Below are positions 1 through 56,487 of a stretch of DNA of 64,000 nt, piece after piece. Below the pieces are notes generated by a model. It was not told the origin of the DNA, searched no databases, and was given only the letters and a program-made list of their open reading frames with translations. The position numbers and the translations under genes are program-made. This DNA is from Marsupella aquatica (Eukaryota > Plantae > Marchantiophyta). The stretch covers positions 4,901,181 through 4,965,180 of the forward strand of contig OZ316895.1 in assembly GCA_973895155.1 (NCBI GenBank). Reading direction: 5' to 3'. Numbering within the stretch: position 1 is the stretch's first letter; every line of letters begins with the position of its first letter.

Positions 1-114
1 TCACGTAATCTGTGGCTTATGCTAGAAAATTCGAAGACCAGCTGTTTCCTATCAAAGTATCTGTCATCGTTCTAGATTAAAGTAGAAGGCAGACAATGAA
101 ATTGGGGATAGGCA

Positions 115-23519: not shown

Positions 23520-26500
23520 ATGGGAGAATACGACGACGTCGTTTCCATAGAAAAGTCATCCCACGGAGGTAGTCCAGCTCAATTTCTGCAAATGATAATA
23601 TCAGAAGTGAATGCTGTTGTTGATCTGGTGGTGAAAGCCACTACGTTTACCACTCAGTTGCAGGATGGGTGGTTTAAAGGTTCGGCGGAGCGTGAGTCAT
23701 TTCAAGACAAGGTTTGGGTCCTTAGCGCAAAGCATGTGCTGTGGAGCGAAACAACTGCAGAGATATGGCATTGTCGAGGACAAGCATTTACTGCGTCTAG
23801 TGAAGGCAGCCGAGGAAGCTCTCGAGAAGCAACAGCAATCGGTGCGAAAACTCAAGAAATCTCCATACAGGAGATGGCAGAAGAGGATATTCCCAGGCCA
23901 GCTCTCATACTTACTGGATAAGGTGTTGGAAATAGTGGATGCTGGCCCGCAATTGCTTGCAAGCAGGGTTGCCAACAACGATCTAGTGGATAGATACTTG
24001 GCACAGACTCCGGCCTCATTGCCTTTTGGTCCGGATAGAAACTATGTGCCAATTGCAGATTCAATCGTGGCGGTACGAAATACATTGGAGAATACAGAAG
24101 GACCCCGAGTAGTGACAGTTTACGGAGGCCCAGGAATGGGGAACAGCAGCCTACTGAAATATTTGGCTATTCACTACCAAGAAGAGCAGAAGAGACAGCA
24201 TGCAGGGAAGAGAGTAACCCAGCTGCTACTCGAACTGCTGGAGAATCTTGGGTTTGGAACTGGATATGCAACTCCAAATGGCTCTAGCAGCACTGGCACA
24301 GATGTACACGAAGCGGATTACACTGCTTTATCTTCAAATCAAATCAAACTCAGATCTCGCTTGGCTGAGCAGGAGTTGCTGGTCATCTTGGATGACTTAT
24401 GGCAGCCAGAGGTATTGCAAGAGCACCTCGTTCCTGCAAAGGGCGTTAAATGTTTGGTCACATCTCAAATGCGAGACGTTCACCGTTTTGCTGAACAGAT
24501 CCAGATAAACAGGCCCACCCTCAGAGAATCTAGCCGGATCTTGGCTAACTATACTGACGGACTTCCAAGAAAGGGTGAATTTCCTCACAATGTGAAGTTA
24601 AGCTTTACAGCTCTGTTTCGTCAGATTTGCAGTAAAATGATGTTCACCACTCACGGCTAAGGTTTTGGCAAGACTCCGTTTCGAGTATTTAGGCTTTTGA
24701 TAAATTAAGGCATGAGCCCAATTGTCATATGTAATACAGCCACTGTTATAGTTCCAATTAGCATAATCTTGTGACTGACACTTAACCCTAGTACTTGCCT
24801 CTGGCAGAGCATTGCAGAGGATATTTTGGACTGTTACATATACACCCGCTCCCTTTGGTCAACATTGGCATCAGCATAAACAGGAGTCGGGCAACTGATA
24901 TCAAACAGTGGGATGTGATAAAGAAACATATATACAACCACCTTGATGAGAATGATAACACTCCACCTGCCTTTGACAGGCCATACAGTCTTCCCTTCAG
25001 TGCATCGATGATGCTTATGGTAGAGTCGCTGCCTGCAGAGGCACAACGGCTCAATTTCTTGGTGGCTTTGTTGAAGGGTCAAAAGTTGCCTGAATCTCTA
25101 GTGAAGTATACAGCTTTATTCCAAAGGATAATCATGAGAGGTGTTTGGAAGACAAGTCACTGATTAAATTCACTGTACGAGGAGATAGGTCAAATGTAGA
25201 CATTCATAGGTTGAGGACGCAATACATTTTAGACAGAAAAAAGCCTGAAGTGAGATCTATAGGTTCTCAGATATTAGCTGCCAGTGGGGATCAAGATGTA
25301 GCTAGGCTTAGAAGGACCGTGGAAGCAGAGGAAACACTGGTCACTGTTTTAAGCGCGATTTACTACGATGAATCGCTCAAAGATGTTGTAGCGGGGACTT
25401 TAGAGAACCATATTACTTTCATCAATGATGGGGTCATTCCACGGAGTTTGAATGCAGAGACAGACAGACTTGATTTCGTTGAGACTGCAAGACGAAAGCA
25501 TAACCAAATCCGAGGCCTTGTTTGGCTCTTGAATGGTGATCATGAAGAAGACAACTGGAAACAACAAGTCCACGAGTCTGCAAAGAAGGTATTGTTAATC
25601 ATTTACCTTCGATCAAGTTAAAATGTCTCAGTTGTGTATTTCTGCTTCAAAGATTTCGGTGAATTACATTTTTTGAAACAGAACATGTCTCAGTTGTTCA
25701 GATATAGACCGATGCGAATGCGCTTAATGTTGAGCTTGTCCTGTTTGAAATCAGTCGTGCAATGCTGCTTATTAGTGAACGTCTCCTTTTCTCAAACTAA
25801 TGATAAGATTAATTTTGCGTCTACCTAAATTTTAGTAAACGAGAAACGCGATGTTCTTAATAGGCTCCGCGTCCGCATCACATTGTATAATTGTGAAGTG
25901 AGTGCAGTTTTCTTGCAGTTTGGATAGCAACCACATTTATCAATGGCTAATACTCGGGGCTTTGGGTGATTGTGACAGATTATTGCCAAGGGAAACTGGA
26001 GGACAATAGTATGGCACACGTACTCCAACTCATGGCTCTCTATCATTGCCACGCAGTAGATTCCTGTGAGCGCAGTGCGACTTTTTCAGAGGCATATGCT
26101 TAGACAAATCAAACTCTGTTGAAGCTGTTGCATAACAATGCCAGATCAATGAAAGAACGAACTGATGTCATCGCTGCTCTTCTGCATGTTCTTGGTTATG
26201 AAAGCAAGCACTACATTTGCAAATTTGCCGCAAAGTATGAGAAACCAATTATTATTTGCCATGAGTTGAAATAATAATCTGAGTGAGTCTGCCACACGTG
26301 CATTGGCACGAGATTCGCATGGTAGAGGGATTCTTACGATGGCAGAGCCTCCTGAACTTTTGGAGCTCTCTTTGTGGTACTAGTAGAACCTGGGAAATGG
26401 CGGGTTCAAACTTGCAGTATACATTATGAGTTATTTATGTCAGTACCGGCTTTCGGCCCTCAGAATTGCTGTTTCGTTGGACGCTTTTAAAACGCTCTTC

Positions 26501-31600: not shown

Positions 31601-32825
31601 CATATAGCCAGGCCAAATTAATAAAAATAGCATATTCAATCATGAAATTTAAACACTATAATAGCAAGTGATCTTGCTATTTCTTTCTCACACTGTCGTT
31701 ACAAAATGTCATTCTCTCCCCTCCCCCACTATCCCCAAGTGCCATTTGATTATGGTCACATTTTTATCCAACCATGAGATGGGCCTAAAGGTTGCCGCTG
31801 TATACCTTTTTCTGCACCCAATTTGCCCCTCTCCCAATAGCTCATACAACCACGTCTCATACACTCCTTGAAAATAATGCAATTGTCAGGATGACTTGCC
31901 AAGTCCCCATCGCCTCCCACTATCTGGCTATTTAAGTTATGCTTAAACAACACTTCCTTTCAACATCACTTAATATTGACAATACTGACTGTACAAAGTA
32001 CACGGGAAAGTATGAGCATTGCACTACTGAGTAAGACTCATGATACAAGCAAAGAGTCTGGGTTTTCCCTTAAAGCTGATGGCACCCCAAACTACACTGG
32101 GCCTCCCAAACCAGCTCATTACAGACCAAAAATCTGCGGTTCCCGCAAAACATGACTGTCAGTAACTCAGATGGTCATCGCACCGACATATGCACCAAAG
32201 TTGCTTTGCACAATATATATATATGTGTCTGCACCCTTCAAGAATCATTGGCGCCCATTCAATAATTGTCAGCACCCAGTTGACCCGCCCAAGCATGTAC
32301 ATTGAAACCAGTCTCAAAAGTGAAACCCCGTGGATTGATTTGGGTTGAAAGTTGGGTTTCAGTCATGCGCATAGATTTCCTAGGACAAATGACTGCAAAT
32401 AAAATGAGAAACAGCAAATTTGACACTCCCTACTAGTGAGGGTTGTCGTCACCCCTACTAGTGCGGGTTTTCCTCAACACTGAGGGCGAGTTCACCAAGG
32501 GGGAACAAAAAAGTGAAATTTCTCGTCTGGGCAGCACAGCCGGTGCCCAAGACGAGAAATTCCACTGCGGCCCGTTGCTGTTTTGGCCTTCCAGAGGGAA
32601 GGAAAGGCTCCCTCTGTCCCTCAGTCCCTCTCGACCGGCCTCGAGTTTCTGGGCTCGCAACTGACAGATGGCGCGCAGGGGCGTGTTCCACGCGGTGGGG
32701 CAGAGTCAAGGAGGGGTCCAGCTATCCGGACGGCGCGCCGTCAACGTCGGTCCAACGGAAACTATTTATTATTAATTAATTTAAAACTTCCGGGCTGACC
32801 GTCTCGCCGGGCCGCCCACGGCGAC

Positions 32826-32833
32826 TATAAAAA
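32826..32833 (+). promoter_or_regulatory. Candidate TATA box / Pol II core promoter of the hairpin-cluster host transcript
   Basis: TATAAAAA follows a GC/CpG-rich stretch (32560-32825) and precedes pyrimidine-rich cattcca/cattctc repeats ~20-50 bp downstream. No convincing protein-coding ORF follows. Confidence 0.55.
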
Positions 32834-33629
32834 CCACGTTCGTCATTCCATATTTCATTCCATTCTCATTCCATCGGCCTTTGGTTTCGCGTCGCCACAC
32901 AAACGAAGCGCCGCATGGTCCCTCTCGTAACGCCTCTCGTTCCAACCTAACCAGGGTTCCGACCGCTTAACCTGCCTTCTTTAGTCTCACATGGGTTTCT
33001 GGATAGGAAAAGGGGAACTCTCTGAGTTCAGCTTTTCTCTCGAAAGAGTGCCATGCTTGTGGCTGTTTGTGCTATAAGCGTCTCTGGTAGGGGAAGAGGT
33101 TGTATGGGAGTTCTCGGTGACGGAGAGACTGGTCTTGGCGGCTCGACCTCAGAATGCAACAGTTTTTGCTTCAGGAATGGTGATGGCTCTCGATCGAGGT
33201 AATGTAATGCAACACACAGCTCAACTTCAATTCCGCTCCACAGACTGACACCTCTTCTTGACATTCATCATGGGTACCTCAGGGTTGTGCTCATATGCAT
33301 TTCGTGAGCCTATATACATACTAAAAAGTTTTGAGATTAATGATATACTAGAGTGTGACTGAATGAAGTCTGGCTTAGGGGCTCACGCGCAATGTGGTCG
33401 TCTGGAAGTTGCAATGTCAATAGTCCATCACTAAATTCCAGGTCAAGTACAAGTCTAGGATGCCAGTGAACACAGTTCGTATTTTATTCCGATCATCGAC
33501 CTGTTAGCACACCATAATTGTTGAATCGTCGAGAGACTTAGTATTGTATTCTGATCATCAACCTGTTAGCACACTATAATTGTTGAATTGGCGAGAGAGG
33601 AAATCCAGATTGATATATGGTGCTCTCAA

Positions 33630-36600
33630 GAAAGACAGATTCTAATGGACTGGCCAAACTCAAGATTATTCGAGAAATGAGTGTAGTCGGCGCACTGTGT
33701 TAGTATCGTCGCACTGGTCTAGTGTTTGAATGAGTGCACTGAGTGTGCTCTGAACAATTCACTGCGCCATTCCTAATCCTAAGGATATAGAAGTAAAATC
33801 AAAATGTCAAGAACCAGATCATGTGGATTTTTGACGAATGATGCACAGCAACAGCTAGCGCCCTTAATGTGAATGTCATTACAATAGACATCCACATTGA
33901 GTATGCTAGCTGCTTGCTGGGCAATGTGCTTCGAACAATTCACAGCTCCATTCCTAATCCTAGAAATTCTATAGACAGGTTCAATAGGACTGGCCAAATT
34001 ACAAGATTATTCGAGAAATGAGCCGTAGTACGTCGGCGCACTGCGTTAGTGTAATCTCGCTGGTCAAGTGTTTGAATGACTACAATATATGAGCTACTAT
34101 ACAATTCACAGCTTTATTCCTAATCCTAGGATATATGAGTAAAATCGAAATGCTAAGAGCAAGATCAGGTGAATTTTTGGACGAATGATGCACAGCAACA
34201 GCTAGCGCCCTTAATGGGAATGTCGTGAGAAGTAAACAGACATCCGCATTGAGTATGCTAGCTGCTTGCTGGGCAACATGCTTTCGAATAATTCACGGCT
34301 CCATTACTAATCCTAGGATATATGAGTAAAATCGGAATGCCAAGAGCGGGATCAGGTCAGGTGAAATTTTTGGACGAATGATGCACAGCAACAGCTAGCT
34401 CCCTTAATGGCAATGTCATTGGACACCCACAGACATTCGCATTGAGCATGCTAGCTGCTTGCTGGGCAATATGCTTCCGAATAATTCACAGCTCCATTCC
34501 TAATCCTAGGATATATGAGAAAAATCGAAATGCCAAGAGCAAGATCAGGTGAATTTTTGGAGGAATGTTGCACAGCAACAGCTAGCGCCCTTAATGAGAA
34601 TGTCGATCATTGGACACCCACAGACATCCGCATTGAGTATGCTAGCTGCTTGCTGGGCAATATGCTTCCAAATAATTTAGAGCTCGATTTTTAATAGATC
34701 CTAGTAAGGATATATAAGTAAAATCGAAATGTCAAGAGCGCGATCAGGTGAATTTTTGGACGAATGATGCACAGCAACAGCTAGCGCCCTTAATGGGAAT
34801 GTCGTGAGAAGTAAACAGACATCCGCATTGAGTATGCTAGCTGCTTGCTGGGCAACATGCTTTCGAATAATTCACGGCTCCATTACTAATCCTAGGATAA
34901 ATGAGTAAAATCGGAATGCCAAGAGCGGGATCAGGTGAAATTTTTGGACGAATGATGCACAGCAACAGCTAGCTCCCTTAATGGCAATGTCATTGGACAC
35001 CCAAAGACATTCGCATTGAGCATGCTAGCTGCTTGCTGGGCAATATGCTTTCGAATAATTCACAGCTCCATTCCTAATCCTAGGATATATGAGAAAAATC
35101 GAAATGCCAAGAGCAAGATCAGGTGAATTTTTGGAGGAATGTTGCACAGCAACAGCTAGCGCCCTTAATGAGAATGTCGATCATTGGACACCCACAGACA
35201 TCCGCATTGAGTATGCTAGCTGCTTGCTGGGCAATATGCTTCCAAATAATTTAGAGCTCGATTTTTAATAGATCCTAGTAAGGATATATAAGTAAAATCG
35301 AAATGTCAAGAGCGCGATCAGGTGAATTTTTGGACGAATGATGCACAGCAACAGCTAGCGCCCTTAATGGGAATGTCGTGAGAAGTAAACAGACATCCGC
35401 ATTGAGTATGCTAGCTGCTTGCTGGGCAATACGCTTCCGAATAATTCACAGCTCCATTCCTAATCGATCCTAGGATATATAAGTAAAACCGAAATGTCAA
35501 GATCGAGCGGGATCAGGTGAATTTTTGGACGGATGATGCACAGCAACATCTAGCGCCCTTAATGGGAATGTCGTGAGTATTAAACAGACATCTTCATTGA
35601 GTATGCTAGCTGCTTGCTGGGCAATGTGCTTCGAACAATTCACAGATCTATTCCTCGTCCTACTTACGCATTCTATGAACAGGTTCTGTAGGACTGGCTT
35701 ACAAGATTTTCGAGAAATGACTGTGGTCGGTGCACTGGGTAGTATCATCTCACTGGTCTAGATTTTGAATGAATACAATGAGCGAGTATATATGATTTGA
35801 AGAATCCACAGCTCCATTTCTAATCCTAGAATGTATCGGTAAAATCGAGAGCCAAGAGCGGGATTATAAGAATTTTTGGACGAATGATGCACAGCAACAG
35901 CTAGCGCCCTTAATGGGAATGTCGTGATAAGTAAACAGACATCCGCATTGAGTATGCTAGCTGCTTGCTGGGCAATGTGCTTCGAACAATTCACAGATCT
36001 ATTCCTCGTCCTACTTACGCATTCTATGAACAGGTTCTGTAGGACTGGCTTACAAGATTTTCGAGAAATGACTGTGGTCGGTGCACTGGGTAGTATCATC
36101 TCACTTGTCTAGATTTTGAATGAATACAATGAGCGAGTATATATGCTTTGAACAATCCACAGCTCCATTTCTAATCCTAGAATGTATCGGTAAAATCGAG
36201 AGCCAAGAGCGGGATTATAAGAATTTTTGGACGAATGATGCACAGCAACAGCTAGCGCCCTTAATGGGAATGTCGTGATAAGTAAACAGACATCCGTATT
36301 GAGTATGATAGCTGCTTGCTGGGCAATGTGCTTCGAACAATTCACAGATCTTTACCTCGTCCTATAGATTCTAGATATGAGCAGGTTCTGTAGGACTGGC
36401 AAAATTACAGGATTTTCGAGAAATGACTGAAGTCGGTGCACTGAGTTAGTATCATCTCACTGGTCTAGAGTTTGAATGAATACAATAAGCGAGTTTATAT
36501 GCTTTGAACAATCCACAGCTCCATTTCTAACCCTAGAATGTATCGGTAAAATCGAGAGCCAAGAGCGGGATTATAGGAATTTTTGGACGAATGATGCACA

Positions 36601-37560
36601 GCAACAGCTAGCTCCCTCAATGGGAATGTCGTGATAAGTAAACAGATATCCGCATTGAGTATGCTAGCTGCTTGCTGGGCAATGTGCTTCGAACAATTAT
36701 TCACAGATCTATACCTCGTCCTATAGATTCTAGATATGAGCAGGTTCTGTAGGACTGGCCAAATTACAGGATTTTCGGGAAATGACTGAAGTCGGTGCAC
36801 TGAGTTAGTATCATCTCACTGGTCTAGAGTTTGAATGAATACAATAAGCGAGTGTATATGCTTTGAACAATCCACAGCTCCATTTCTAACCCTAGAATGT
36901 ATCGGTAAAATCGAGAGCCAAGAGCGGGATTATAGGAATTTTTGGACGAATGATGCACAGGAACAGCTAGCTCCCTAAATGGGAATGTCGTGATAAGTAA
37001 ACAGACATCCGCATTGAGTATGCTAGCTGCTTGCTGGGCAATGTGCTTCGAACAATTATTCACAGATCTATACCTCGTCCAATAGATTCTAGATATGAGC
37101 AGGTTCTGTAGGACTGGCCAAATTACAAGATTTTCGGGAAATGACTGAAGTCGGTGCACTGAGTTAGTATCATCTCACTGACCGTCTAGAGTTTAAATGA
37201 ATACAATAAGCGAGTATATATGCTTTGAACAATCCACAGCTCCATTTCTAATCCTAGGATATGTGAGAAAAATCGAAATGCCAAGAGCGGGATCAGGTGA
37301 ATTTTTGGACGAATAAATCACAGCAACAGCTAGCGCCCTTAATGGGAATGTCATTAGAAATCCAGACATACTCATTGAGTATGCTAGCTGCTTGCTGGGC
37401 AATATTTTTCGAGAAATTCACAGCTCCAGTTCTAATCGTGAGGATTCTATAGACAGGTTCTATAATTATAGCCAATTAATTAATACAAGAAATCATTCGA
37501 GAAATAACTGTTGCCGGCTCAATGTATCAGTATCATCTCACATACTTAGTGTTGCATGAG
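33630..37560 (+). repeat. Recently amplified part of the hairpin array: ~190 bp monomers, a ~574 bp trimer, and ~350-360 bp units
   Basis: Spacing between successive 5' arms: 347, 193, 187, 199, 188, 187, 199, 195, 351, 351, 356, 359, ~363. Spacers are near-identical between copies. Confidence 0.93.
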
Positions 37561-40500
37561 TACATAGCATTGTCGTAGTCTGCGTGGCTGATAGGAGATG
37601 TACAAGATGGGAACTGTTCGGGTGACATTGTCAAAAGTATTGGTGTAAAGGTCTTACAGTGGAAGATGCTTGGATCTGGCGTGTAGATTACAGATGAATA
37701 TATATCTCCCTACATATGGCGTGTAGATGACAGATGAATATGTCTCCCTTAATTACACGTTTTAGCGCGCAAAGAGAACAACGTCTACACGTGAAACTTG
37801 AGAGATTGGAAAATTAAAAGTCGACCCCATGCACTGAAAACTTAAGCTGATGTGAGGTCATAATGACGAAGATTCGTCTGTCTTCTTTTATGATAGTACA
37901 TACAGGACGAATCTTGCAATCCGTCGGGGCCCTCATCGGAACGGGAAAACCTAGCAAAGGATTCTTTGGGGCGATAGAAATTGCATGAACTATACTGGGA
38001 TCTGAGCGAACTCTCTGCATCACTAGGGTAGATTCCAAGGGCCGAAAAATCAAGTGGATTCAGGATTGTCAGATGGTCTCAAGTAGGCATTTCTCGAATA
38101 ATCCATGTAGTCCCACGGAATCTGTCTTTCGTGATTCTATAATTAAGACCTTACCCTTACAGGAGCGCGCTTTGTCTCAGCATTCCTGTAGTCAGAACAT
38201 ATTATGAAGACGTAGTCCAGCTCCAGATACCCGCCACTTGAGAATGATTGATTCATGAACTGACTGTTATTTGGTTGTCATTTACTTCCCTCAACATCGT
38301 TTCCGTTAGCAAATGTGACATTGCTTAGAGATATTTATGGCCGGGAGACGCTCGAAGCTTGGTACATATCAAGCTCTAGCGCCCCTGATGCTAGCTGCTA
38401 GCTAGGTGACAAACTTCTCACAACTTACTTTTAATGTCATGATAAATTAGGTTCTACCGGGAGCAGCTAGCTTCTTCGTCCATAATTGGTACATGATCAC
38501 GTAGTTTTGTGTAGATTTTCAGTTTTTCAATCTAGAATTAGTTCCATTCGTGAAAACCATTTCTATCAAGTGACCAAGCTAGATAGAGCAATTACTAAGG
38601 TGTTCGAGGAGTCAGTGATCTTAAAAATGGTGTCACCTCTACAGTGCTGACAGAAATACATACCTCGATCACAAATTAACACTTCTCCATTAAGCACGAG
38701 TAAGCATTGTTCAGCTGCTGTCTATTCTGTTGTCACACGGAGCAGTCAGAACCCTTTCTACTGTCTGCACTCGAATAAATACGTTCTTGCAGGGCCGAAT
38801 CTCTTATCACACCATCAGAATGCAATCTGGCATTCTTTCTATTTTAATGTACGTAGAAGAGGCGAATGAAGGTTGATTCTTAGCAAGAGGTAGTTAGTCG
38901 CATTAATGGGGATGTCAGCGAACTTGGGCTGCTCGTTTGACTGCCATTTGAGAGGAGTCCAAAGATGTCCCAATGGATTCTGCTTGCTCGTTGCTAGGGA
39001 ATGAGTTTCAGGTGACTCGTCAGCTTAACGTACGTACTCAGTACTTTCTCCCGTGCTTAAAAGACCCAGACTGTATAAACAATTAGTTTAAGTGGTGATA
39101 ATTAAATCAGATACGGCCGCATACAAAACTAACGATAAAGTTTTTGTTTAAATGTGGATAAGGTTCTGTTGCTATTCACCTAAATGTCCAAATTCGGGGT
39201 CCAAATATCTGAGTGTAGTATAATATGACGGGATATTTTAACACTGATTTGATGTCAACTACAAGTCCATGGAATAGGTAAATAATCGGGTAAATAATAC
39301 GTGCTGCTGTGGGGCCTACTGTTCTTAGTCCACTACTTTTGTCGTCGACCTCGGCTTGCTATCATTTATGTAGGACCCAACATGTTACTACACTAGCTGT
39401 ACTATATGTAAAGCGGTAAGTATAATATTATTCTCATTATCTTGGAACACATAAAGTCGATAAGTAAAAATGCATTCCCCTTTCTGACTATTTCTAAGGT
39501 ACGTTGATAGTGCTATTTTTTAAGTCAGCCAGGTTTGTGAAATGTATCAAGAGCAAGAGCTAGCGCCCTTACTAATGGCGGTGTCATCGTATTGGTAACC
39601 AAAGATATCGACGTTGAGTATGCTTGCTAGCTGCTTGCTGCAGAGCAGTACGCTGCTAGCTAGCTAGCACTAATTAAACAATATTTCTTCATTTCTCGGG
39701 TACATTTACTACACCTTCTTAATTATCGACAACAACACTCGACCATATATATGTGAAGGCATAACATTTCAATTAAGGAAAGCTTTCAAGGTTGAATTGT
39801 CTGCGGAAGTATGATGCACAGCAAGCGCTAGCGCCCTTAATGGAGATGTCACGACGTTGGTAATTGACGGACATCCACATTGAGTATATATGCTAACTGC
39901 TTGCTGGGCATTATGCTTCTCACAATTCACAACTATTCTTAATGTTAGGACAAGGACGAAGTGTATCACACATTGTCATTAATTACATTAACAAAGAGCT
40001 CATATAAACATCTGGACGATCAAATGAATGTTAGATAAAGAGTGGTTTTATGAATAGTGTGGAGCATGATGCACAGCAAGAGCTAGGGCCCTTAATGGAG
40101 ATATCGATCATGCACGAAATTGATAATGAAAGATATCCACATTGAGTATGCTAGCTGCTTTCGATCGATCTGGGCAATGTGCTTCTCACAATTTACAATG
40201 TCATTTCTGCTATCAACCTCGGGGCCTAAATAAACATAGGACACCTCTTCAATTCGCTGTATTAACAAAAGTACATGTTTTAGGGTGATAACGTTGTTTT
40301 TAGAATCAAGGCTGGTTTATGGTGTATATATGAATTGTCTGATAGAAGTATGCTGCACAGCAAGAGTAGCGTCTTCAATGGAGATGCTGAGAAATTTGCA
40401 ATTCAGTGTAATGCTTGCTGCTTGCTGGCCGGGTAGTGTGCTTTTCACAACTCACAACCACACTTTTCTTCTCTCATGGCTCTCGCCTCATCGAGTATGC

Positions 40501-43500
40501 ACATATGTGTAGTCCTGACACATTCATTTTCACTGCGTTCACACATTAAATTAGGTGGGTAACCTTGAATGTTTTCAAAATTAAGGCTGGTTTATGAATG
40601 GTCTGAAGCATGATGCGGGGCAACAGCTAGCGTCCTTGATGGAGATGTCATAAAACTGGTCATTAAAGACATCCATATTGAGTATTCTGGGCAGTATGTT
40701 TCTAGTAATGCGCAACCAGAATTTTGTACTCTAAAGGGTGTACGTGGTCTAGGTCTATGTTGTTCTCACTTTCACGTACTATATTAGCAAAACTGTGCAT
40801 CATATATTGTCTAGGTTTCAAGCTAGGATAGAGTACATGTTTTCTTTCTGTAATTCAACCGTGGTTCTTAAATTTGTCTGAGGAATGATGCACAGCCAGC
40901 GCTAGCGCCCTTATTAATGGAGAAGGTCTACATATTACGTCACATTGAGTATGCTAGCTGCTTGCTGGGCAACATGCTTCTTTCGATTTGTAGTCTGATC
41001 GACTCGATCTCTGCTTATGTTTGGGTGCACTTTTTGATTTGATCTGGATGGCTATAGTAATAGTTTTGATTTGCTGTTGTTGCCTGCGGTAGTTAAAATG
41101 AAGGATGTGAATTGTCTGAGGTATGATCGATGCACAGCAAGCACTAGCGCCCTTAATGAACATGCCTAAATATGGAAATTCTGCGACATCTACTTTGAGT
41201 ATGCTAGCTGCTTGCTGGCCAATTAATATATATCTTTTAATTTCCACTGGTGCTCTATCATGATCGATCTCTCTCTAGGTCTGGGTCAACAAATTGTTTT
41301 GATAAATAAAGAGTACGTAACAAATTTGATTTTTTGCTTTTGTCACCTGCAATATTGGTTTAGAGCGTCAGAGGATATCTTTCCACTACAAAGACTTGTC
41401 TTATCTTAGGTAGAAGCTAGATGTAAATGAATTGTCCGAGGTGTGGCCGGTGCACCGCAAGCGCTAGCGCCCTTGATGGAGATGTCTAATTATGCGAACT
41501 CTACGACGTCCGCATTGCTTTCTGGGCAAGATGCTTCATTCAATTTATACTCCGACTCGATCTCTGGTTAAGTTAATTTTTTAATGAAGCTCTCTGTAGT
41601 TCGGATAAGGTATGTGTTTCCTTTCTGTAATATATATATTTTATATATGTGGATGCCTTTTTTTAATTCCCAAAGTAATCCACATTATATTGAGTACGCT
41701 AGTTGCTTGCTTGGCAATATGCTTGGTAGAATTTAAAACTTCTCTTTCCTACTCTTATGGTTTGCCTAGTATGGATATGAAAAAAACTATTTGACTCTGG
41801 AAACAATAAATTCAATTCTCAGATTGATAAAACATTTCAAGAGTAGGTATGCCTTGTTCGATGTATGATGCACTGCACACTGCACAGCAAGAGCTGGGCA
41901 GCGCCCTTAAGGCGATGCCATATATCCCTGTGATAACGGTATGCACATTGATTGTGCTAGCTGTAAGTTGCTGGCAATATGCTCTTTCCAAGTTTTACAT
42001 GGGGGTGGCCTGGCCTAAAGTCATGAACCGAACAACTCCTGGACCACTCAGACTAAACATTCATGTCTCACATTGATATAACGTACATTTCAGGAGTAGC
42101 TAGCAATGAATTGCTTGATGTCTGATGCACAGCAAGCGCTAGCGCCCTCAATGGCTATGTCATGAAATTGGTAACAAAAGGCATCCGCATTAAGTGTGCT
42201 AGCTGCTTGCTGGGCAATATGCTATTGAACAATTTGCAACTGCTCTTTCCCAGTCTCATGCATGCATGGGTAGCCTACAAATATAAAGCCAAGAATTGCA
42301 CTCAAACAAAAACAGTACGTGTCAGATTGATAAATCACTTCAAGAGTATGTATGAAGTGAATTATTGGATGTGTGAGGCACAGCAAGAGCTAGCGCTCTT
42401 AATGGCAATGCCATCACATTGGTCGATCAGCAAAAGCATTCACATTGAGTATGCTAGCTGCTTGCTGGACAATATGCTTCCTGATATTCACCGGCCGTAG
42501 TACTTTTCTTTAAATTTATTTCTTTGACCACGAAGTCTCAGTTCCTAAACGGATTAGAACTTCACCTAGCTAGATCGGCTACGGTAGGAGACAGAGCTTT
42601 TTATTATTTTGAAATATTTCCTTACCTTTAAGAAGGTCAGAGGAGCACGAATATCACAAGGGCATCAAACCGATATATGCAATATTGTAATGAACAACTA
42701 TACCAAGGTTCTGTTAGGAGCAGGGAATATAATTCCAGCAAGGAACTAAGTCTCTACATTCCGAATTGGTTTCTTTAATTAATCTCTTCGACAAAGTAAA
42801 CTCACAGGTACGTAATTTTGCAGCTGAAGACGAAGACCGCCTGCCCAAGAACCTAAGGTTTATTTATGGTACGTATTTGACTGAGTTCATTGTGTCACTT
42901 GCCCGGTCACATGTGGGGCAACATGCATGTGAGGCAACGTGCTTGAACCATTTGAAACGCGAGGGAAGATTCTCGTTTGCTACCGATTACCCGACCGATT
43001 GCAGGTACATGACAGTTTCAGATGGATTAATTTTTTAGAGTTTAGTCCAGCCTTGCAAGGGGACTGTTACGACCCATGTACATTTGCAATTAATTGCGCT
43101 AATGTAAACTGTTTGAGACATCGTGTAGCTGGGAAGAAGGCTGGCAGGGTAGGATTATTCCGTTCAGACCCCCTTCAGCCCAGCTGGTACCGATGTTTTC
43201 AACTTCAGTGTTATTGACCATCGTTGGCAACTGCATCGATCTCATAGTCTAAGAAGACGAAGTAGCATAATACCCAGCGACAGGTCCGATTCAACCGACG
43301 AATTACAAGCACAGTAGCAGCTAGGGGAATCGATCACAAAATAAGGTGGATTATATGGAAGAATTTTAGATCCTGTTTCAGAAAGTTCAAACAAGCGTCT
43401 GAGTTGCTTGTCACCTGCAATATCGGTCTGAAATGGTAGACAGTCCCGCGCGAGTCTCAGATCAAACTTCTCTACGTATAGCTTTCCACTGTCCCGCAGT

Positions 43501-44990
43501 AGACATGCAAGTTTGTATATTAGGCGTTGGCAAAATGGTTTCAATAACAATGTGAAGATATGAATCGCTAGTGCCCTAGATAGATCTCTAAATATTCGAC
43601 TCACCGACATCCTCACTGAGTATATATGCGTGCTGGGCAATAATTATGCTTGGTTCGACTTGTACTTCAACTCCATCTTTGGATAAGTTCGAGTCAATAC
43701 TTTGACTAATGAAGAGAATTAAGTAATATTGACTTGCTTCTATCGCTGCAGTATTTGTCTAAAAATTAATTGTCACTACCGGTCGAGATATTAATGTGGG
43801 GACTCAACGACATCTACACCCGTATCTACATTGAGCCTGCTAGCGGCTGCTTGCTGGGCAATATGCTTTATTCAATTTGTACTTGGGCTCTATATATCAT
43901 ATCTCTCAGTAGGTTTGGGTCCATCAATTTGTTTTGATCAAGAGTAAGTATGAATTGTCGGTATGACACGTACACAGCAAGTGGTAGCGCCCTCAATGGA
44001 GATGGTCTACATATATATTCTCTGAAACTCAATGACATCCACATTGAGTATTCTAGCTGCGCGCTTCCTGGGCAACATGCCTATTTCCATTTGTAGTCTG
44101 ACCCGACCTCTGGTTATGTTTGGATCAACTTTTAACCGATCAAGAGTAACAATTTTGATTTGCTTTTGTTGCCTGTGGTATCGGTCTAAAAGTGAAGGTC
44201 ACTTAGGAGTCTCAGGGTATGCCTTTCCACTCCCCTTTCCACTATGTACAACTCATTAGACTGCAGTTTTGTACGTATTATAGGTTAGTAAAACATAAGG
44301 GCCGTCTTGCATGTGCAAGAGTCCTTTAAAAAGCGGCCCTTACCTGCCCACAAACGTCGGGAAAAAGTGTGTGACCAAATCAAAACACGGTCTTTCAAGT
44401 CAATGCTCCACTCAGTAGCGTGTCTTCCTTTGTTTTTTCCACCCCTTGAGAATACAGGCTCAAAGAGTAAGCATGTGCCACTTAAAGGGTATATAATTTG
44501 GGGACCCTCACATGCAAGATGGCTAGGCAGACGTATATATATGAGTTCTACGAGGTATGGTTCACAGCAACCGCTACCGCCCTTATTGGTCGGAGATGTC
44601 TAAATATATATTGGAACTCAACGACGTACATCTACATTGAGTATGCTAGCTGCTTGCTGGGCAACAGGCTTCATTCGATTTGTAGTCTGACTCGATCGAT
44701 CTCCGATTATGTTTGGGTCACCAATTTCTTTTGATCAAGCGTACACACCAATTTGAATTTCTCCTGCAATATAGGTCTAAAGCTTCAGAGCTTATCTTTC
44801 TATTTAAATTGACTCCACAGTGTTATATCTTAGGTACAAGAAGTAAATGAAATGTCGAGGTATGATGCACAGCAAGCTCTAGCGCCCTCAATGGATCTGT
44901 CTAAATATATATCGGAACTCGACGACGTCCACATTGAGTGTGCTAGCTAGCTGCTTGCTGGGCAATACGCTTCATTCAAATTGGGCTTGC
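33820..44990 (+). ncRNA. Tandem cluster of ~28 (+~5 remnant) imperfect stem-loops; putative polycistronic pre-miRNA cluster of one family
   Basis: Each unit has a 5' arm TGCACAGCAA(C/G)(A/C)GCTAGCGCCCTTAATGG..ATGTC, a variable ~9-25 nt loop, and a 3' arm GACATCC.CATTGAGTATGCTAGCTGCTTGCTGGGCA. The arms are imperfect reverse complements (~36 bp), extended by a lower stem tgaattgt..gtat / atgct..acaattca. 5'-arm starts: ~33842, 34189, 34382, 34569, 34768, 34956, 35143, 35342, 35537, 35888, 36239, 36595, 36954, 37318, 39552, 39815, 40070, 40354, 40614, 40889, 41131, 41451, 41881, 42126, 42378, 43971, 44561, 44866. The repeats are seen directly; the miRNA interpretation is inference. Confidence 0.75.
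44301..44523. mobile_element. Possible small MITE inserted between hairpin units
   Basis: gccgtcttgcatgtg (44301-44315) and cacatgcaagatggc (44509-44523) are reverse complements at 14/15 positions. No clear target-site duplication. Confidence 0.4.
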
Positions 44991-47427
44991 ATGGGCTCTA
45001 TCTCTGCGTAGGTGTGGGTCTAAACAATTTGTTTTGATCAAGAGTACGTACATAAAACTTGCGATTTTTCTCCTGTCGCCCTCGCTGTCGCCTACAATAT
45101 CGGTCTAGGCATAAGAGCACATATATCTATTTACTTGTCCTTATATCTAGTCTATTGCAATTAAATAATAAACTTTATCTTGAATATTGCTTGATGGGCA
45201 ATGAATGTTCTTTTGAATTGGTGACTCTTCTTGATCTTGAATATTGTTGTGTCTCTAGAATATTGTTGTGTCTTTGGGCCCTCACTTCTAATAAATATGT
45301 AAGTGAATCGGCCAGTCGATCATGATCACTTTTTACTTACCCATTGTTATTTTTATTTTACTATAAAAGGTTTTTGATCATTTATAATTATGAGTTTGAT
45401 CGAATAATTATGGACCCCTATTAGTCCCTGACACAAGGATGCGTCACTTCAGCGAGTATGGTGACAAATAAGATGGAGCAGGTTTTTTGGAAAACAAAAA
45501 GATCCTTGTCATGTTTGTGTTCATATTTACGTAAATTATAGGATGGCATATCATAAGTATTAAGCGTAAAAAAACAAAATACAAAGGAAGAGATGTAATG
45601 TTTTTCACTGTAATCTTATTAGTTACCATTCTAGTGTTTTTAAATTATTTACTGTGTAATTAATTAAATAATTGTCTCTAAAATAACGTAAGTAAGTAAT
45701 GGCATACTTGATCCTCTTTCTTTTGATGAGAGAGATACCAATGAGAGATGATTTGTGAATACCTAGGGTACTACCATTCTATCACATTGCGTCGAAGAAA
45801 CAGAGAAGTGATCTTCAGTTGAGTTTTGAGTTTGAATTTGAATTTAATTTGAGTTTTGAGGTGAATGGTGGATACAGTATGATCGTATAACTTGCACACA
45901 CTTAAAGAACCGTCATTGACTCAAGAAGTGCAACATCATAAAATGTCCACCTCCCTTTCTCTATGAAGAGATGTCACAATCCCGTCACCGTCACAAACTT
46001 AGCCGCTGCAAATATTGATTTCTTTGATTATGTTGTCGTCGCTTGTCCGCAATGCTTACTTCCCGGCTTGAATTGTTTGCGTCCCTCCAGGCTTCAACTA
46101 AAGCTCACTCTAAACACAAGTTGATGCCAAATGCAGCCTCTATGTCTAATTGAAGAAACAATTGCTGGTCTCCCCTCACACCATGGCTTTCTTAAATTTA
46201 AAAGACTACAAATTAAACCTACATGTGAAGTGATGGCTCGTTTGTTTTGTGTGTTCTTCCCACCAAAATGACAAGCGTTCTTTGGCCAATAGTTGAGTGT
46301 TGTCTTCCGGTCTGTCTTGTGACCATACTGCTTAACATAACTCACAAACAATCATCAAGAATCATGGTAGAAAAACGATTTCTCCAATGTGTAAACGAAA
46401 ATCATAAAAAACTCAATTCCTTCACATTCAACCTTCCATTTGATAAACTAGAGAGATCATCTCAACCAGATCGATCTCTAACTTGTATCTTTCAAGTGTT
46501 CTCTTTTGTACAAAGTATTGGGCCTAGCCACCCAGCACCCTCACCAATCCCAACACCCATGCCTAAGTGCCCTTCATGCCCTTCATGCCCTTCATGCCTC
46601 CATGAAACTTCTTGAGCAAGCAACTTGATGTCTCTTGCACCCCCCGGTGGTCACTCCCATACAAAGCCACACTTGCTCCGTAACACGACCGTTGCTCAAT
46701 GGTCCTCACTGTTTGCACAAGCGACCAAGCACTCCGATGAGTAATCCAAAGGATCTAGACATTTCAAGACTAACATCCTAATTCAAGCTCAAAAGACATT
46801 GGTAAGTAGGTCAACGAATAGGTCCTCCGGCCTTGGTCTGCATGGCCTTGCCATAAGCCAACACTAGAGCCGACACCCACTATTCATCCAAAACAGTTCC
46901 TCTTTGGATGCAGCCCGTGCTCCCCAACGTACCTATCCGTCACTGGCTGACCGCCCTGCCCCCAGGACCCTAACCCCCAAGCTTCACATGACCCAACTAG
47001 CTTCTAATGTTAGTCTAAGTTCTTAATGTGTGCCATTAGGTCAATGCATCACCTTTGCTAGTACAACGCCTCATTGTCCACAAGTCTCCCTATATTTAGT
47101 ACCCACCGAATCAATAACCGTCCCGAGGGCTTGGACTATAAAGAAGCTTGACATTGGAATCAGCAATACTAAAGCTAAGTGGTAGGATAGTGGAATTTGG
47201 CAACTCCTCCTAAAATGTAAGAAAAATACATTTTAAAACCTCTATAAAGTTGAACCCTAAACTTGGAATATTCCAAAAATAGACTCTAATGTTCTTACAT
47301 ATATAAGTCTCAAAATAGAATGTAAAGGACCCTAATGTTTCTCTCAGAAAATTCTTAAGTAAGTTTTTTTTTAGAACCATAAAACATTATCCTTTGTCGC
47401 ATGTGATGTGTCATTTTTGTGGAAGTG

Positions 47428-50284: not shown

Positions 50285-50569
50285 GCACTCGGGAAGCCTC
50301 ACAACCTCATGTTGTCATTAATGGCTCCAAAGTTTCACGGATGTCATGGAGTAAGCTGAACATGAGCGACAACTCTGGCTCCAGGAGGGATTGTTCTCAT
50401 CAAAAATATTTCAAATATTTTGGATCAATTTGTAATCTCTAACTCTAACTGACCCAAGAATACTCAAAGCTATTGATGAGATGCAGATAGAATTCTATCA
50501 ATAATTTTGACCATATTTGGGTTTAAGTTCGAGATTAAAATTCATCCAAGATATTCCAAGCAATAGATC

Positions 50570-50691
50570 CACTAGATAGAATCCCTTTCTCTAGCAATAG
50601 CTAGTCGTGCTTCTGACTCCACAAAGTTACACTAGATAGAATCCCTTTCTCTAGCAATAGCTAGTCGTGCTTCTGACTCCACAAAGTTACA
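50570..50691. repeat. Perfect 60 bp tandem duplication overlapping the TDP1beta stop codon/3' UTR
   Basis: cactagatagaatccctttctctagcaatagctagtcgtgcttctgactccacaaagtta occurs twice in tandem. Confidence 0.95.
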
Positions 50692-53600
50692 GTCTCTGGC
50701 ATTTCCTTCCGATCATGGGCGTGAAGGGATCAATCTGGCTCCAAAGGAGTTCTCCATACTCTTCCTCCTGTTGCGAGTTTGACGCAGACTCGAGACACAG
50801 CTGAGATTCATCCCCATTATCATCTGTGTCAGATCTTGCCATCTCTATCTCGCTATCGTCACTTGAGCCGCTTTCTAGAAGTGACAATTTACTCCTCAAG
50901 CTCTCCGCAACGTTATACATTGCTTTCTTTGTGGCAGGTTGATCCACGTCCAGATATTTTGGAGCCGGGACACAAAAGGGTAACACGAACTTGTCCAAGC
51001 CCAACCTCTCGTTATCCACGTCTGATTCCATCTTGCTCTCGTCCAAATTAGGCTTCTGAGCGAGTGGTTTAAACTGAAGTAATTTTGGACCTTCATTCGG
51101 AGGAGGCTCCACAAATACGAGGCCAACCTCGTAGTTAGAGATAAACAAGTTACAACCTAAGGTGGTTGGACGGCAGTTGCAAGGATGAACAGCTTTAGCG
51201 TGCGGCCTACCCCATGCAGCTGGGCTGAAATTATGTGATCCGCAGTAGACCCAACCGTAAGGAGCCTCTCTGGGATGGCTTTGAAATCTCCTTTGTGCCA
51301 CCTGGTCAAGAAATGAACGCGCTAATTACGGGGTCCATTTCAGCTGAACACAAATTATTGTACTTTAACTAGCATTGGATATGAGGAGTCCTGGTGACTG
51401 ACCTTCACGTGCATGGGGATGCCCTCACGTTCAGCTGGAAATGGAACGGCGTCATAGAGGATGCAAGCTGTCTTCAATCTCTCCCATGTGCTCTAAGGAA
51501 GAGACAGTTGTAAAAAGTGTTAGAATTTTGATATCTTACACAATTACCTTCATCAAGTAAATTAATTCAAATCTCAAAGTGAGGTACAGCAGGAACGCAA
51601 GTGAGGAAGAAATAGATAAACACGGTCACCAGTTCAAGAGGGATTGCCTGAGGCTCATACCTCAGCAAAGCACAGAACTGCTTGGTGGCTGAAAAGTCCA
51701 CATTTGGCAGCTTTTACACTTTGGATGGTTGGAAATACCACTCCTATAGACGGAGCGTTAGCTTCATGTTCAGTTGTCCAGGCGCCCCACTGCAGTAAGA
51801 AAAGGCGTGAGAACTCAAAATAAATGAACGTAGAAAATTATTATCAGGGAAGCCCGTTGTGAGATTGATCATCCTCATTCAAATGTCCAGGAGAACGCTT
51901 TGTCATAACTATGTGCACCTGAGAGTCTGACTCTTCAGACAAATCTGAACGAACTGCTTTCTTCCCGGCAGCAACAGAAAATGCAGCTAAAAAGGCAGCA
52001 TCCAAAGATGTTCCAATGGAAGATGAACCTGGCATGGCCAAAAGAGGTACGGAAATCTCAATGATATTGACAGATATAAATTGAGTTCACAAAAAAATGC
52101 GGAGTTTGCTCAGAAGCTTAATTACGAAATAATCAAAACGGAAAACCCCATCAGAAAGAAACAAAAACTCTTAGGCCAGTCAGTCGAAGTCTACATAACG
52201 CAAGACTTAAAAGTGACTGGGTTTACCGTAGATGAAATTGGTCTCGCTTGCGTCTAGCCAATTGAACTTGGATAGAATCTGCAAGATTTACACCACAAAC
52301 AATTAGCATACAAGAAACTATTACCAAATTGCTCAACAGATAGTAAGCTCGAAGCGTTTCATATGTCGGACTATTTTGAGAGGAAGCGTCGTCCACGTAC
52401 CAAGTCTAACTTTGAGGACCTTCCAAAGACATTCATAAGCATCCAAAGGAAGTCATTTCTAGTAGGTCAGCAGGTTCTTTACTGATTTATCTAATGCATG
52501 GTATTCATGCCATAAACGCAATTTCAATAGCTAATCATCATCCTGACCTTAGATTCATTGCAAGCAGACACACTTTGGGTGAGAGACTATCTACCTGACG
52601 AAGTCGCCACAATCCAAGAGGGCGCTCCATGTTCCGTAACAAGCCGCATAAGGCTATGGTGTGATGAAGGGATAAATCCTTGGTTGAAAGGGATGAAAAT
52701 GTCCGGCCCTGCCCAGAAAGATGGCTCAGGTTTGTACAAGCTACCAAAGAAAACTAAACTCCTAAGAAAAATTTGGAAAAGGTCCTTACAATCTTCCTAT
52801 GCACCTTTGAAAAGGAGTTGAATTTCCATGGGTAAGAGAATGCTCGATTATTATAGACTTTACAGTTTATCACCATAGTAAATTACATGACATTCCTTGA
52901 TGAGAGAGACCACTCACCTCAAAAACATATAGTACAAGCTGTGGAACTTTCTTGCTCATTCCATTCGCGAGACCAATCACTTCATTTGGCCGGATGAAAG
53001 CTGCGAATGTGCAGAGACCACTGTCATAAAGGGGAGCAACCCACTTTGCTACAGGTCGTGGCAGAAAACCTATGTGTACAGAATTCGCTGGAAGAGAGGA
53101 AGACAGTGAGTCCCCAGCCACCTGCAAAAGATCTTTTCCATTGACCACCTCCATGCCACCTTGGTTTGAGTCTGAAGACACAATTACAGTCACGGCATTT
53201 GAATCGGCGGTCAAATTTGTGATTCTTTCCAATTGAACTTTAACCAATCCACTCTCCAGTAAATCTGTATTGTTCAGAATAGCTGCAAGGGTTCGAACTC
53301 GTTTCCCACATGGATCAGCGGAATCCTTGAACCTATGACTTACTCCAACCACAGTGCTCTGAACAGCAGCAAGCAACTTTCTAGTTCGCCGAACACCATT
53401 CTCTGCAGTTAATAAGTCCTGCGGTTAACGGAGCCTGTCAGTAATTGCAATGTCCGTCGCTTGCGAATATTCCAACTTTTTATCAAAGTCAGTAGTCTCT
53501 CGGTTATGTCCACATCTCGTTTCAGACGAAAACCTGCGGACTTACGTGAGGGTTATTAATACTTAGGAATTTCCACATGTTCACAGAGATTTACATATTT

Positions 53601-56487
53601 TAACAGATAATCTATCATGATTTATGCACGTTTTCCGTACATTTGAACATGTTTCATGATCAAATGAAGTTGATCGACCGCCACTTCTTTGGTGAAAAAG
53701 GACTTTACTGAGGGTGCACTCCACAACGAGCGCTGGCTTATGTGAAAGACTAGTGTACTTAGTAGCTGAATTGTCTCAGCTTGGAGGTAAGTCCAAATTG
53801 TTTACCTTCTTCACCAGGTCCCGTACAGAAGCAGGAACAGGTGGGCATGGACAGCCATAAAATCCTGGAATAGAGGTGACTAGTGATGCTGCTGCATTGC
53901 TGAAGTCGAACTCAGCCAAATCAAGAGCCCAGTGTGCTGCAGAAGGTACGTCTGCAACAAGGGAGGCTATGAAAGAAGACAAATGCATCGCAAAATCGTT
54001 TTGCGTGAGCTGCGGAACCAACACAGTTTCATCGATACCAGATGTGCAGAACAATGCCTCATAGTCGCGTAAATCTTTACGGGGAAAGTCCTGCCACCAG
54101 ACACTGTTGGTGACGTGCAGCCACTGCATGAAAGGAAGAAGTTAGAAGAAGATTCCGGTGTAAATTTCCTGGCAACATTTATGTGCAATAAGATGAACCT
54201 TATTTGGACTTACTTCACTGGTGACGCACAACAACGCAAAGAAGCCCATTGATTGGGCTCAATCTTCTACGTCATTTGAGTGACAAGCCACATCAACATA
54301 ACTAACCATGTGAGCCTTCACCGCGTGGGCTCTCACACACCCCGGTTCAGATCATTTTCTAATACTCAATATTTTGTTCGAAAATGTTCGGCGTTACCTG
54401 AGAGCGAGTGAGATTGGCTGAGGTAACAATTACACGAATCCTATCCTTTCGAGGCAAGAGAAAGATCTTGGGATGGTGACATCCGATCCCCTGTCTTTTC
54501 TCTGTAGTAAAGCAACAAGAATCTGGAAAACCAGGATATCTGCACCAAATTACCACTGGTCGGGTCAAAAGTACATTTGTGAACACAACACTACGTTCGC
54601 AAAACAGGCGTGACCTAAATGAAAACAATTGATATTCACAAATGGTACACGCTCTGGGCAAAAGATGTCTGTGAACTCACACAAGTTTGACGTTGGGCCA
54701 ATTAGGAAAAGGTGAAGAAGTACGTGATTCTTCAGCTGTACTCCAGCAGCGATCACGGTCATGACAAGCCACAGTGACGGGCAATTCAGGGGATATATTG
54801 TGTGAAGAAAGGAACCTGCACAGAATGCTTAAACCTCAATTCTATCATTAACATTGCTAGATTTAGAATTACGAGATAAAGATTGTTCTCCAAACAATTG
54901 TAATAGTACTAGAGGCTTAACCTAGAGTCATCCCTTGCTTTGAAACTAAAGACATTGGAAATCGTCTCTTAACGGCACCAAACAATTCTCATCCACAGGG
55001 AGTGGGCTTCCAATTTTTTCTCAACAATGAACTGCGAACAATTGTCCTGAACGAACTCACCACATGATGTCACTCGTGAAAGTCGCAATAAATATGCCAA
55101 GAAGACCGTCTGTAGGATTCAGAAGCTCTTGCAGAGAAACTGTCTGCTGAGAATGGACTTGTGAATCAGGTTCCAAGTCTTTCAGTCTATTTAAAAGAAA
55201 CCCAGATCCAGGGGATTTTCCATTCAAAACTCCAGTATCTGCATTGGACATGTGTTCCTGAGCGAGCCCCGTCCTCTCCAACTCGTCCAGCGTGCCTCGA
55301 TCGTCTTTCACCTCTCCTCTTAGTGAAGTTTCATCCATCACAGGCCCAGCACTGTGAGACTTATTTCCAGACATAACCTTAAAGTTGTCTGTTTCTGGTT
55401 TCGTCGCCAACTCTGCACTTGAACCACTTCTAGAGTTTTCAATATCAATAGCCTTGGCCAAGGAAATTCTCGCAGATGCAGGAGTGACAGCATCGCCATC
55501 GATCACTTGGCACCTTGATGGCCTTTCCAACAGCATTTTCCTATCCTGACAAGGTGGACTAGTCCTGGCTGAAACTTTGGCATTGCATTCTTCCGACAGT
55601 TCCAAGTTATCAAAATTTCGTTCCAGTATTTTAGAAATCTCTTTGCACTGATTCAATCCATGACCCTTGAGAACCGTTTTGCCGTCGTCCAACCCTCGAT
55701 CCTGAACCTTCGTTAACCCTGAAGACCCTTCTTGTTGTTGCCTCAACAGTCCCATAATCTCAGCGGTGGACCGTTTGGGTATCTTTCTCACTCTAGCTTT
55801 AGACGAAGTAGACGACCGGCGTTCAAATGAGATGGAACTCTTCTCATCTGTCGATCTCCATCCTCCCTCCTTACAACTAGACAAAGGCCGCTTCCTACAA
55901 AAGGTAGGCAACGGGATACAACCTTTCTGAGATTGTTCAGATCTTGGATTTCTAAGCATCCTTACATCTACTTGGACTGCTCTGGGAGGGTGGGTCGGAC
56001 ACAATGTTTTCACCTCAAAGAGATCCACCAGCTCAACAAAGAACCCAACAGCATCGCCGAACCCAGGATCCTCCACAGTCCGAGCATCCATTGTGCAGGC
56101 CACGAGAGAGACTTCAGATCCAGGATTCAAAATGCGACAACCTCCCTGCGCCAATTTCTTTCCATCCACATACAGTCCGTTCAGAGACGGCTTCATTTTC
56201 TTTCCGGGGGCCAAAACCGATGATGATGGCGTTACATTTGCACTGGTGATAAGAGCGTCCACCGGCGCACCTTCAAAGAGCAAGAGCTGGTTGGTGATGT
56301 TGTCCCAATAGACTTGGCAATGCTGGCGGCTCACCCGCGCATCTGAGAAAACGACATCGCAGCAGCTCCGTGATCTGCCAAAGGTGTAAACCCGTCCAGG
56401 AACCAAAAGCAACTCCCGATACTTCTTTCCAGTCCGTGCGTCGTACATTGGCGCACGAAGCACTCGCAGTTTGAACATCGTCGTCAT
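50687..56487 (-). CDS. TDP1beta: Tyrosyl-DNA phosphodiesterase 1 beta (FHA + PLD/HKD-type TDP1 + HIRAN), multi-exon
   Basis: FHA motifs FGRS..CDVVF...VSRQHC..SLNG; IATFTSDIMW/FL; first catalytic motif HHPKIFLL..IRVIVTSANL; VWWQDFP; LVTSIPG; HIRAN-like DSNAVTV..IGFLPRPVAKWVAPL; IGVVFPT; second catalytic motif PMHVK/VAQRRF; WVYCGSHNFSPAAWG; ISNYEVG. Confidence 0.92.

Follow-up and report, generated by a model that had tools for sequence, protein, structure and literature searches.

Giant microRNA (miRNA) clusters are known from animals, where they bear the names C19MC and miR-430, and the rice miRNA miR2118 is a 22-nt 3′-arm trigger of phased small interfering RNAs (phasiRNAs). The human and zebrafish clusters comprise more than 40 loci, and a survey of three plant genomes reported homologous clusters of two to eight hairpins each (PMC2812943). 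In rice, the miR2118 super-cluster on chromosome 4 is reported to hold 15 copies in approximately 20 kb, with candidate polycistrons of two to three, and a miR395 cluster holds seven hairpins in 1002 nt (PMC4860694). For liverworts, one two-hairpin polycistronic locus is reported among 23 units in Marchantia, and the same DCL1/HYL1 machinery is reported from transcriptomes of Jungermanniopsida (PMC9291395). This study analyzed a 64,000-nt stretch of Marsupella aquatica DNA (contig OZ316895.1, positions 4,901,181 to 4,965,180; hereafter the window, in whose own numbering positions are given), which carries a tandem array of imperfect hairpins. The array likely encodes a new lineage-specific MIRNA family and cluster that evolves by birth and death, with a predicted 22-nt mature strand on the 3′ arm, a reading to which we assign a probability of roughly 0.6.

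Like the rice miR2118 super-cluster, the array has many homologous hairpins in one region; however, it packs 33 loci into 11.2 kb, 14 of them in 3.6 kb, and has no Rfam match to the miR2118 family. Rice miR395 clusters likewise contain hairpins of a single family that lie close together in one orientation and arose by successive duplication of one hairpin, but the liverwort array exceeds them two- to fourfold in copy number, belongs to an unconserved family, and grades visibly from young copies to decayed old ones. With respect to the MIR genes of Marchantia and Pellia, the machinery reported for Jungermanniopsida is the same, whereas the Marchantia polycistron has just two hairpins and no Pellia miRNA compared matches the arms. 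In the giant animal clusters, too, tandem duplication amplified the dosage of one family, but their biogenesis machinery differs and they serve as an analogy only. The locus is real and unusual; it most probably works as a homologous MIRNA cluster, of a new family and an extreme size, and is not a new kind of system. A first-pass annotation made from the sequence letters had stated that plant polycistronic loci usually hold few hairpins, to which the precedents of rice miR2118 (15 in approximately 20 kb) and miR395 (up to 8) must be added; as a MIRNA cluster, the array would be larger and denser than the surveyed plant clusters (maximum of 8 if compact; 15 in 20 kb). No comparable bryophyte or leafy-liverwort cluster was found in the literature searched, outside which most subscription papers lie, and the description of liverwort MIR genes as few and mostly single draws on data from Marchantia and Pellia only.

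A profile made from 16 units was run on the window at a cut-off of E < 0.01. The search revealed 34 matches, all on the plus strand at 33817-44988; two of them belong to one remnant, leaving 33 co-oriented loci (14 young and 19 old) over 33815-44991. In the rest of the window, no other hairpin unit was found at this cut-off, the best match elsewhere having an E value of 0.081. Neighboring loci, all of one family and on one strand, lie within the 3 kb that defines a cluster, and the largest gap is approximately 1.1 kb. The array occupies non-coding DNA that does not match the proteins of the flanking genes and in which the longest ATG-initiated open reading frame encodes 112 amino acids. These results agree with the 28 units and approximately five remnants in one orientation that the first-pass annotation had counted, and with its description of the arms and lower stem. 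Its figure of approximately 30 hairpins holds for loci, but only approximately 18 of them pass the duplex criteria.

The young block (33815-37428, plus strand; 3.6 kb) comprises 14 near-identical hairpin units of approximately 125-135 nt at a spacing of 193-363 nt, which were delimited by profile and folding and form one clade (support 95/93). A three-hairpin segment within it was recently duplicated (34161-34739 and 34740-35313, plus strand), the two copies aligning with 569 matches, 5 mismatches, and 5 gaps. Five repeats of 351-363 nt, each consisting of a hairpin and a long spacer, extend over 35509-37288 on the same strand, and adjacent repeats differ at 10-15 positions. These comparisons indicate that the young units arose through recent higher-order duplications. 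All 14 units folded into a single hairpin, with z scores of -3.4 to -8.3 against dinucleotide shuffles and minimum folding free energy indices of 0.71-1.01. The plus strand folded more stably than the minus strand in every case (in one unit, z was -8.6 versus -5.9), and seven consecutive units formed separate hairpins when folded as one 1.4-kb RNA. Eight further segments, termed type B, alternate with the hairpins in the long spacers of 33655-37560 (the first at 33655-33775, plus strand) and bear a weak likeness to the unit at both lower-stem ends. They folded no better than shuffles (z of -0.7 to +1.2 on the plus strand); the score of type B against the unit at 34161 was reached by 3 of 300 shuffles, and against old units it was not significant in two of three comparisons. 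Type B is probably a long-decayed unit that was carried along.

Each unit has a stem of approximately 50-55 bp with regular mismatches. In a representative unit on the plus strand, structure prediction places a 21-nt star strand on the 5′ arm (34186-34209) and a 22-nt mature strand with a 1-nt bulge on the 3′ arm (34256-34280), in either of two registers. Register A would pair 34189-34209 with 34256-34277, and register B, which sits three bases lower, 34186-34206 with 34259-34280. Both registers give 2-nt 3′ overhangs and a U at both 5′ ends, and the 3′ strand measures 22 nt against 21 nt for the 5′ strand because one base of the 3′ arm is unpaired. All 14 young units yielded this 21/22 duplex with its overhangs, which supports the precursor-miRNA geometry proposed in the first-pass annotation, and the second of the mature candidates named there (34449-34470) corresponds to register A. 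Fewer than five bases of the 3′ arm are unpaired in register A in 13 of the 14 young units, which fall within the mismatch limits given for plant MIRNA duplexes (PMC10760457); these 13 units and 5 of the 19 old loci pass the duplex criteria.

Among the 14 young units, 10 have an upper stem of 15-17 nt in register A and 9 have a lower stem of 15-17 nt in register B, the lengths reported to be used by DCL1 in loop-to-base and base-to-loop processing, respectively (bioRxiv 129684). These lengths do not separate the two registers; the upper stem is slightly more conserved than the lower stem. The 1-nt asymmetry is retained by 29 of the 30 scoreable 5′ arms. Bulges are reported usually to yield a 22-nt strand, and 22-nt miRNAs to be enriched among triggers of secondary siRNAs (PMC4615586).

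Column identity among 15 old units was highest in the duplex, at 88-90% for the 3′ arm and 86-89% for the 5′ arm; the upper stem reached 82-84% and the lower stem 70-79%, and the loop (60%) and flanks (46-50%) were the most variable. The flanks are possibly non-homologous among old units, and rates were therefore compared only in pairs with alignable spacers; of 12 aligned old pairs, the four without shared members were kept. In these old pairs, the 3′ arm carried 7 substitutions in 93 positions versus 53/218 in the homologous spacer (p = 5e-4), and the 5′ arm carried 16/100 (p = 0.11 against the same spacer). Two of the excluded old pairs, which involve the badly broken unit at 40322, had a damaged 3′ arm (9/23 and 5/28). 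In four young pairs, substitutions numbered 4/100 in the 3′ arm versus 33/212 in the spacer (p = 0.002), 7/96 in the 5′ arm (p = 0.046), and 37/177 in the loop and upper stem. The 3′ arm thus changed approximately three to four times more slowly than homologous spacers in both blocks, with the 5′ arm intermediate, and between paralogs the duplex was more conserved than the loop and flanks in both blocks. Such slow change of the 3′ arm is as expected of a selected mature miRNA. The results confirm the peak of conservation that the first-pass annotation had placed in the 3′ arm and support its choice of that arm as the most likely site of the mature strand.

The old block (38335-44991, plus strand), delimited by profile, arm alignment, and duplex check, comprises 19 diverged loci. 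Seven of them keep both arms free of insertions and deletions in the 21-nt core, and five of these seven pair properly, leaving intact duplexes at 39784, 40861, 41099, 42098, and 42349. The remaining loci carry 4-8 nt insertions or 17-23 nt deletions, or are half units. The most diverged member (38862-39015, plus strand), recognized by profile and folding, is a long-loop hairpin whose altered arms still pair (z of -2.3; 6 of 200 shuffles were as good). The arms are indeed more conserved than the flanks, as had been noted from the sequence, but their persistence is confined to the minority of loci given above; similarly, the unit-by-unit folding that had been recommended succeeded throughout the young block, but only 5 of the 20 old fold windows reached z ≤ -2. 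The old half appears to be mostly decaying, and about 18 of the 33 loci look competent. The picture suggested by these comparisons is that of a cluster evolving by birth and death, in which the 3′ arm would be constrained for as long as copies were or are active, and the copies would decay freely afterwards. Birth and death of MIRNA copies would be readable in this one locus, which also offers two exact 22-nt predictions.

The stretch 35401-45300 was present in five sequencing runs from three studies with two organism labels, and four of these runs (X2, X3, X4, and X5) were compared over 37301-45300. No RNA run was listed for this stretch, a result that carries no information about expression. 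Run X2 was identical to the window over this interval and may be the source of the assembly. Runs X3 and X4, which carry the other organism label, contained exact pieces as well as pieces a few percent diverged, at different depths, and all eight X5 pieces listed were of the diverged version. Therefore, the old block is present in at least two haplotypes or subgenomes. The mixture of exact and diverged pieces in X3 and X4 resembles that of a hybrid, a polyploid, or a mixed sample. The young copy number of 14 rests on the assembly, the run comparison having reached the last young unit only. Two unit flanks from X3 and X5 had no counterpart in the array of the window (one had no match, and the other had one two-mismatch match at 23692, equalled by 10 of 100 shuffles), and more family members therefore exist somewhere in that genome.

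The first-pass annotation had recognized no known family, and our searches of the sets compared agree with it. Rfam gave no match at the gathering threshold over the whole 64 kb, and at E ≤ 10 on four stretches it gave no plant family of note, only sub-threshold, structure-driven matches such as mir-4798 (33 bits versus a cut-off of 75). Four arm motifs in RNA letters were absent from the main text of the literature searched. In the Pellia and Marchantia supplements searched, arm motifs matched no mature miRNA apart from the pen-miR8186 probe, and pen-miR8186 has just a 10-mer in common with the minus strand. None of the 42 novel Pellia miRNAs in Table 2 of PMC4368373 matched either arm when compared by eye, and the searchable part of the Marchantia mature miRNA supplement of PMC4788410, which excludes supplement file 1, contained no arm-motif match. 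The exact 24-nt 3′ arm pattern had no match in metagenome contigs, and 19 metagenome loci related to the TDP1 gene downstream of the array (36-64% identity, from distant plants) contained no hairpin unit at E ≤ 1. An H/ACA small nucleolar RNA cluster was also considered and ruled out by structure, the units having no pockets of the kind typical of that class.

Several observations weigh against the array being a functional MIRNA cluster. The duplex criteria are failed by 14 of the 19 old loci, and four old units showed no constraint between haplotypes (duplexes 6/154 versus spacers 18/426, p = 1.0); this comparison drew on two X5 contigs that differ from the window by 30 substitutions over 40080-40916 (29 of them also in X3), and three of the four units were already broken. 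Some bulge positions are reported to yield 20/21-nt products instead (PMC4615586). The bulge is moreover one inherited feature and not the product of repeated gains, and CA, GA, and GC lie one substitution apart, so its retention is weak evidence. Covariation on 17 units was modest, with a score of 0.116 versus 0.105 for shuffled alignments (49 of 500 shuffles as high). In that alignment, 87.8% of cells were paired and 10 of 49 pairs changed on both sides (9 of 500 shuffles), but these changes lie mostly in the poorly aligned lower stem and loop edge, and RNAalifold returned no consensus fold from a gappy 24-unit alignment. The p values are approximate since paralog pairs share ancestry, and a signal resembling selection could also arise from gene conversion between arms. 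The target prediction advised in the first-pass annotation yielded no site with a penalty of ≤ 6.5 for the 3′ candidates in a scan of the rest of the window only. The 5′ candidate had one site at a penalty of 6.0 there, and the neighboring protein families suggested no target. Targeting of the NB-ARC GLPL motif by the 5′ arm was considered and rejected: antisense-arm peptides shared no more than 4 of 6-7 residues with it in 14 proteins, and a search with the motif pattern gave no site.

Neutral or nearly neutral tandem amplification of one ancestral hairpin, itself a real or former MIRNA, would proceed by unequal crossing-over as in a satellite, with copy number unselected and the arms kept alike by gene conversion. 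The broken state of most old copies, the four old units without constraint between haplotypes, and the higher-order repeats of the young block are all consistent with such a process. However, in the young block the rate of change in loops and spacers is 4-5 times that of the 3′ arm, and the 3′ arm exceeds the 5′ arm in conservation in both blocks (7/93 versus 16/100 in the old block, p = 0.08), an asymmetry for which conversion offers no explanation; we regard neutral amplification as unlikely. It is distinctly unlikely that the array is instead a hairpin-siRNA or proto-MIRNA locus, which would be transcribed and diced imprecisely by DCL4 or DCL3 into a spread of siRNAs and would resemble the tandem-hairpin locus hp-CG4068 of Drosophila or the hairpin RNAs of maize. 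The approximately 55 bp of pairing per unit, the two plausible registers, and 3′-side conservation that continues for approximately 12 nt above the duplex would suit a locus of this type. Nevertheless, conservation peaks on one arm, and no gene or element homologous to the units was found elsewhere in the window. Their stems are short and regularly mismatched, in contrast to the near-perfect long hairpins described from maize (a 4,480-bp example in PMC11390486), and no unit is the long near-perfect inverted repeat by which hairpin-siRNA loci are recognized.

A miniature inverted-repeat transposable element (MITE) or other small transposon, with the hairpin as its terminal inverted repeat, appears a very improbable source of the array. 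Each unit is an imperfect inverted repeat, and both of the X3/X5 unit flanks tested were missing from the array, which points to more copies in that genome. However, target-site duplications, named in the first-pass annotation as a mark of a MITE, were absent from the 24 of 33 loci tested, the longest flanking repeats (0-4 nt) being at the random level. The units multiplied along with their spacers, as indicated by 11 spacer alignments between old units (170-408 nt, 67-76%; one, of 408 nt and 68%, spans two units), and all copies in the window are in tandem with related spacers; the copies are therefore not likely to be MITE insertions. Within the stem, conservation is lowest at the unit ends, and a genuine MITE-like element inside the array looks different: inserted in a spacer at 44299-44525, it has 15-nt terminal inverted repeats (44301-44315 and 44509-44523), and in all four runs compared both of its borders combine high depth with numerous, varied loose ends. 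Descent of the family from MIR390, with the 5′ arm as a diverged miR390, would be compatible with a MIRNA cluster, and we consider it quite improbable. Marchantia miR390 (Table S1 of PMC4788410) aligned to the 5′ arm of nearly every unit, with 15 of 21 positions identical and one gap in the best old units, and its 3′ end on that arm coincided with register A. The likeness of six old units had p values of 0.014 (shuffles) and 0.029 (random 21-mers of the window), and in Marchantia the sole locus reported to be polycistronic is MIR390 (PMC9291395). By contrast, p was 0.35 for a young unit, and among unrelated 150-nt windows 4 of 341 scored 9 and 21 of 341 scored at least 7, equalling the best plus-strand units. 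The lead was chosen by eye among many families and fails multiple testing, Rfam gave no MIR390 match at E ≤ 10 on the four stretches, and the miR390-like arm is the less conserved one. Given a comparable stem and a weak 5′ arm likeness, but six mismatches, a gap, and no Rfam match, the array is not a member of MIR390, and the likeness is at most a weak lead on its origin.

The array multiplied by local duplication. If it is a MIRNA cluster, as we favor, it would be transcribed by RNA polymerase II on the plus strand, perhaps starting at a promoter-like site at 32.8 kb and reading across several hairpins. DCL1 would process the hairpins loop-to-base in register A, where the upper stem is 15-17 nt, or base-to-loop in register B, where the lower stem is 15-17 nt, and the product, which starts with U in both registers, would be loaded into AGO1. 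The 14 young copies would supply a high dosage while the old copies die, and the 22-nt length would permit the triggering of secondary siRNAs. The candidate promoter (32400-32900, plus strand) lies approximately 1 kb upstream of the array in the 1-kb bin with the highest GC content of the window (0.508) and was proposed from promoter motifs, namely TATAAA at 32826 and, after it, a pyrimidine-rich tract; TATAAA was found five times in 32-46 kb. The 5′ leader may contain an 82-nt intron (33199-33280, plus strand), for which GT..AG borders and a branch-like motif were picked out by eye from consensus motifs. A GC-rich 20-bp inverted repeat (32512-32566; 90% complementary, 15-nt loop) stands beside a 25-nt tandem pair (32428-32477) just upstream of the TATAAA.

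The strength and recency of the amplification suggest selection for dosage, as in defense or reproductive conflict. DCL2 is reported in seed plants only (PMC10721683), and a bulge-made 22-nt miRNA would therefore be one of few bryophyte routes to 22-nt triggers. A more specific version of the MIRNA cluster, which we regard as rather unlikely, would be an independently evolved counterpart of the miR2118 super-cluster, with one promoter, a polycistron of approximately 12 kb, and a bulge-made 22-nt miRNA that the young hairpins would release in quantity and that would trigger phasiRNAs; the setting would probably be reproductive tissue or a genetic conflict, and the lineage is one from which DCL2 is reported to be absent.

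Protein matches outside the array indicate that the host DNA is plant nuclear DNA of a leafy liverwort. The organism was placed by the downstream FHA/HIRAN/TDP1 gene (50717-56487, minus strand), whose best match is Calypogeia fissa, with 57-90% identity over ten exon matches; its first exon is 64% identical to that of Calypogeia fissa versus 38-45% for Sphagnum. Upstream lies an NB-ARC gene broken into several frames (23592-26470, plus strand), whose relatives, 4 of 7569 candidates and 850-1231 amino acids long, are all from Calypogeia fissa; this restriction suggests a leafy-liverwort-specific family. A multi-exon ABCA-type transporter gene occupies 1-14700 on the plus strand, with an R1 domain match at 14231-14686. 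Broken frames of a long terminal repeat retrotransposon extend over 60282-62998 on the minus strand and encode reverse transcriptase, RNase H, and integrase, with a PHD finger downstream of the integrase. An AT-rich long imperfect hairpin (50401-50555) at the 3′ end of the TDP1 gene adjoins an exact 60-nt tandem duplication (50570-50691), and a 39-nt minisatellite of approximately 13 copies is located at 58037-58532.

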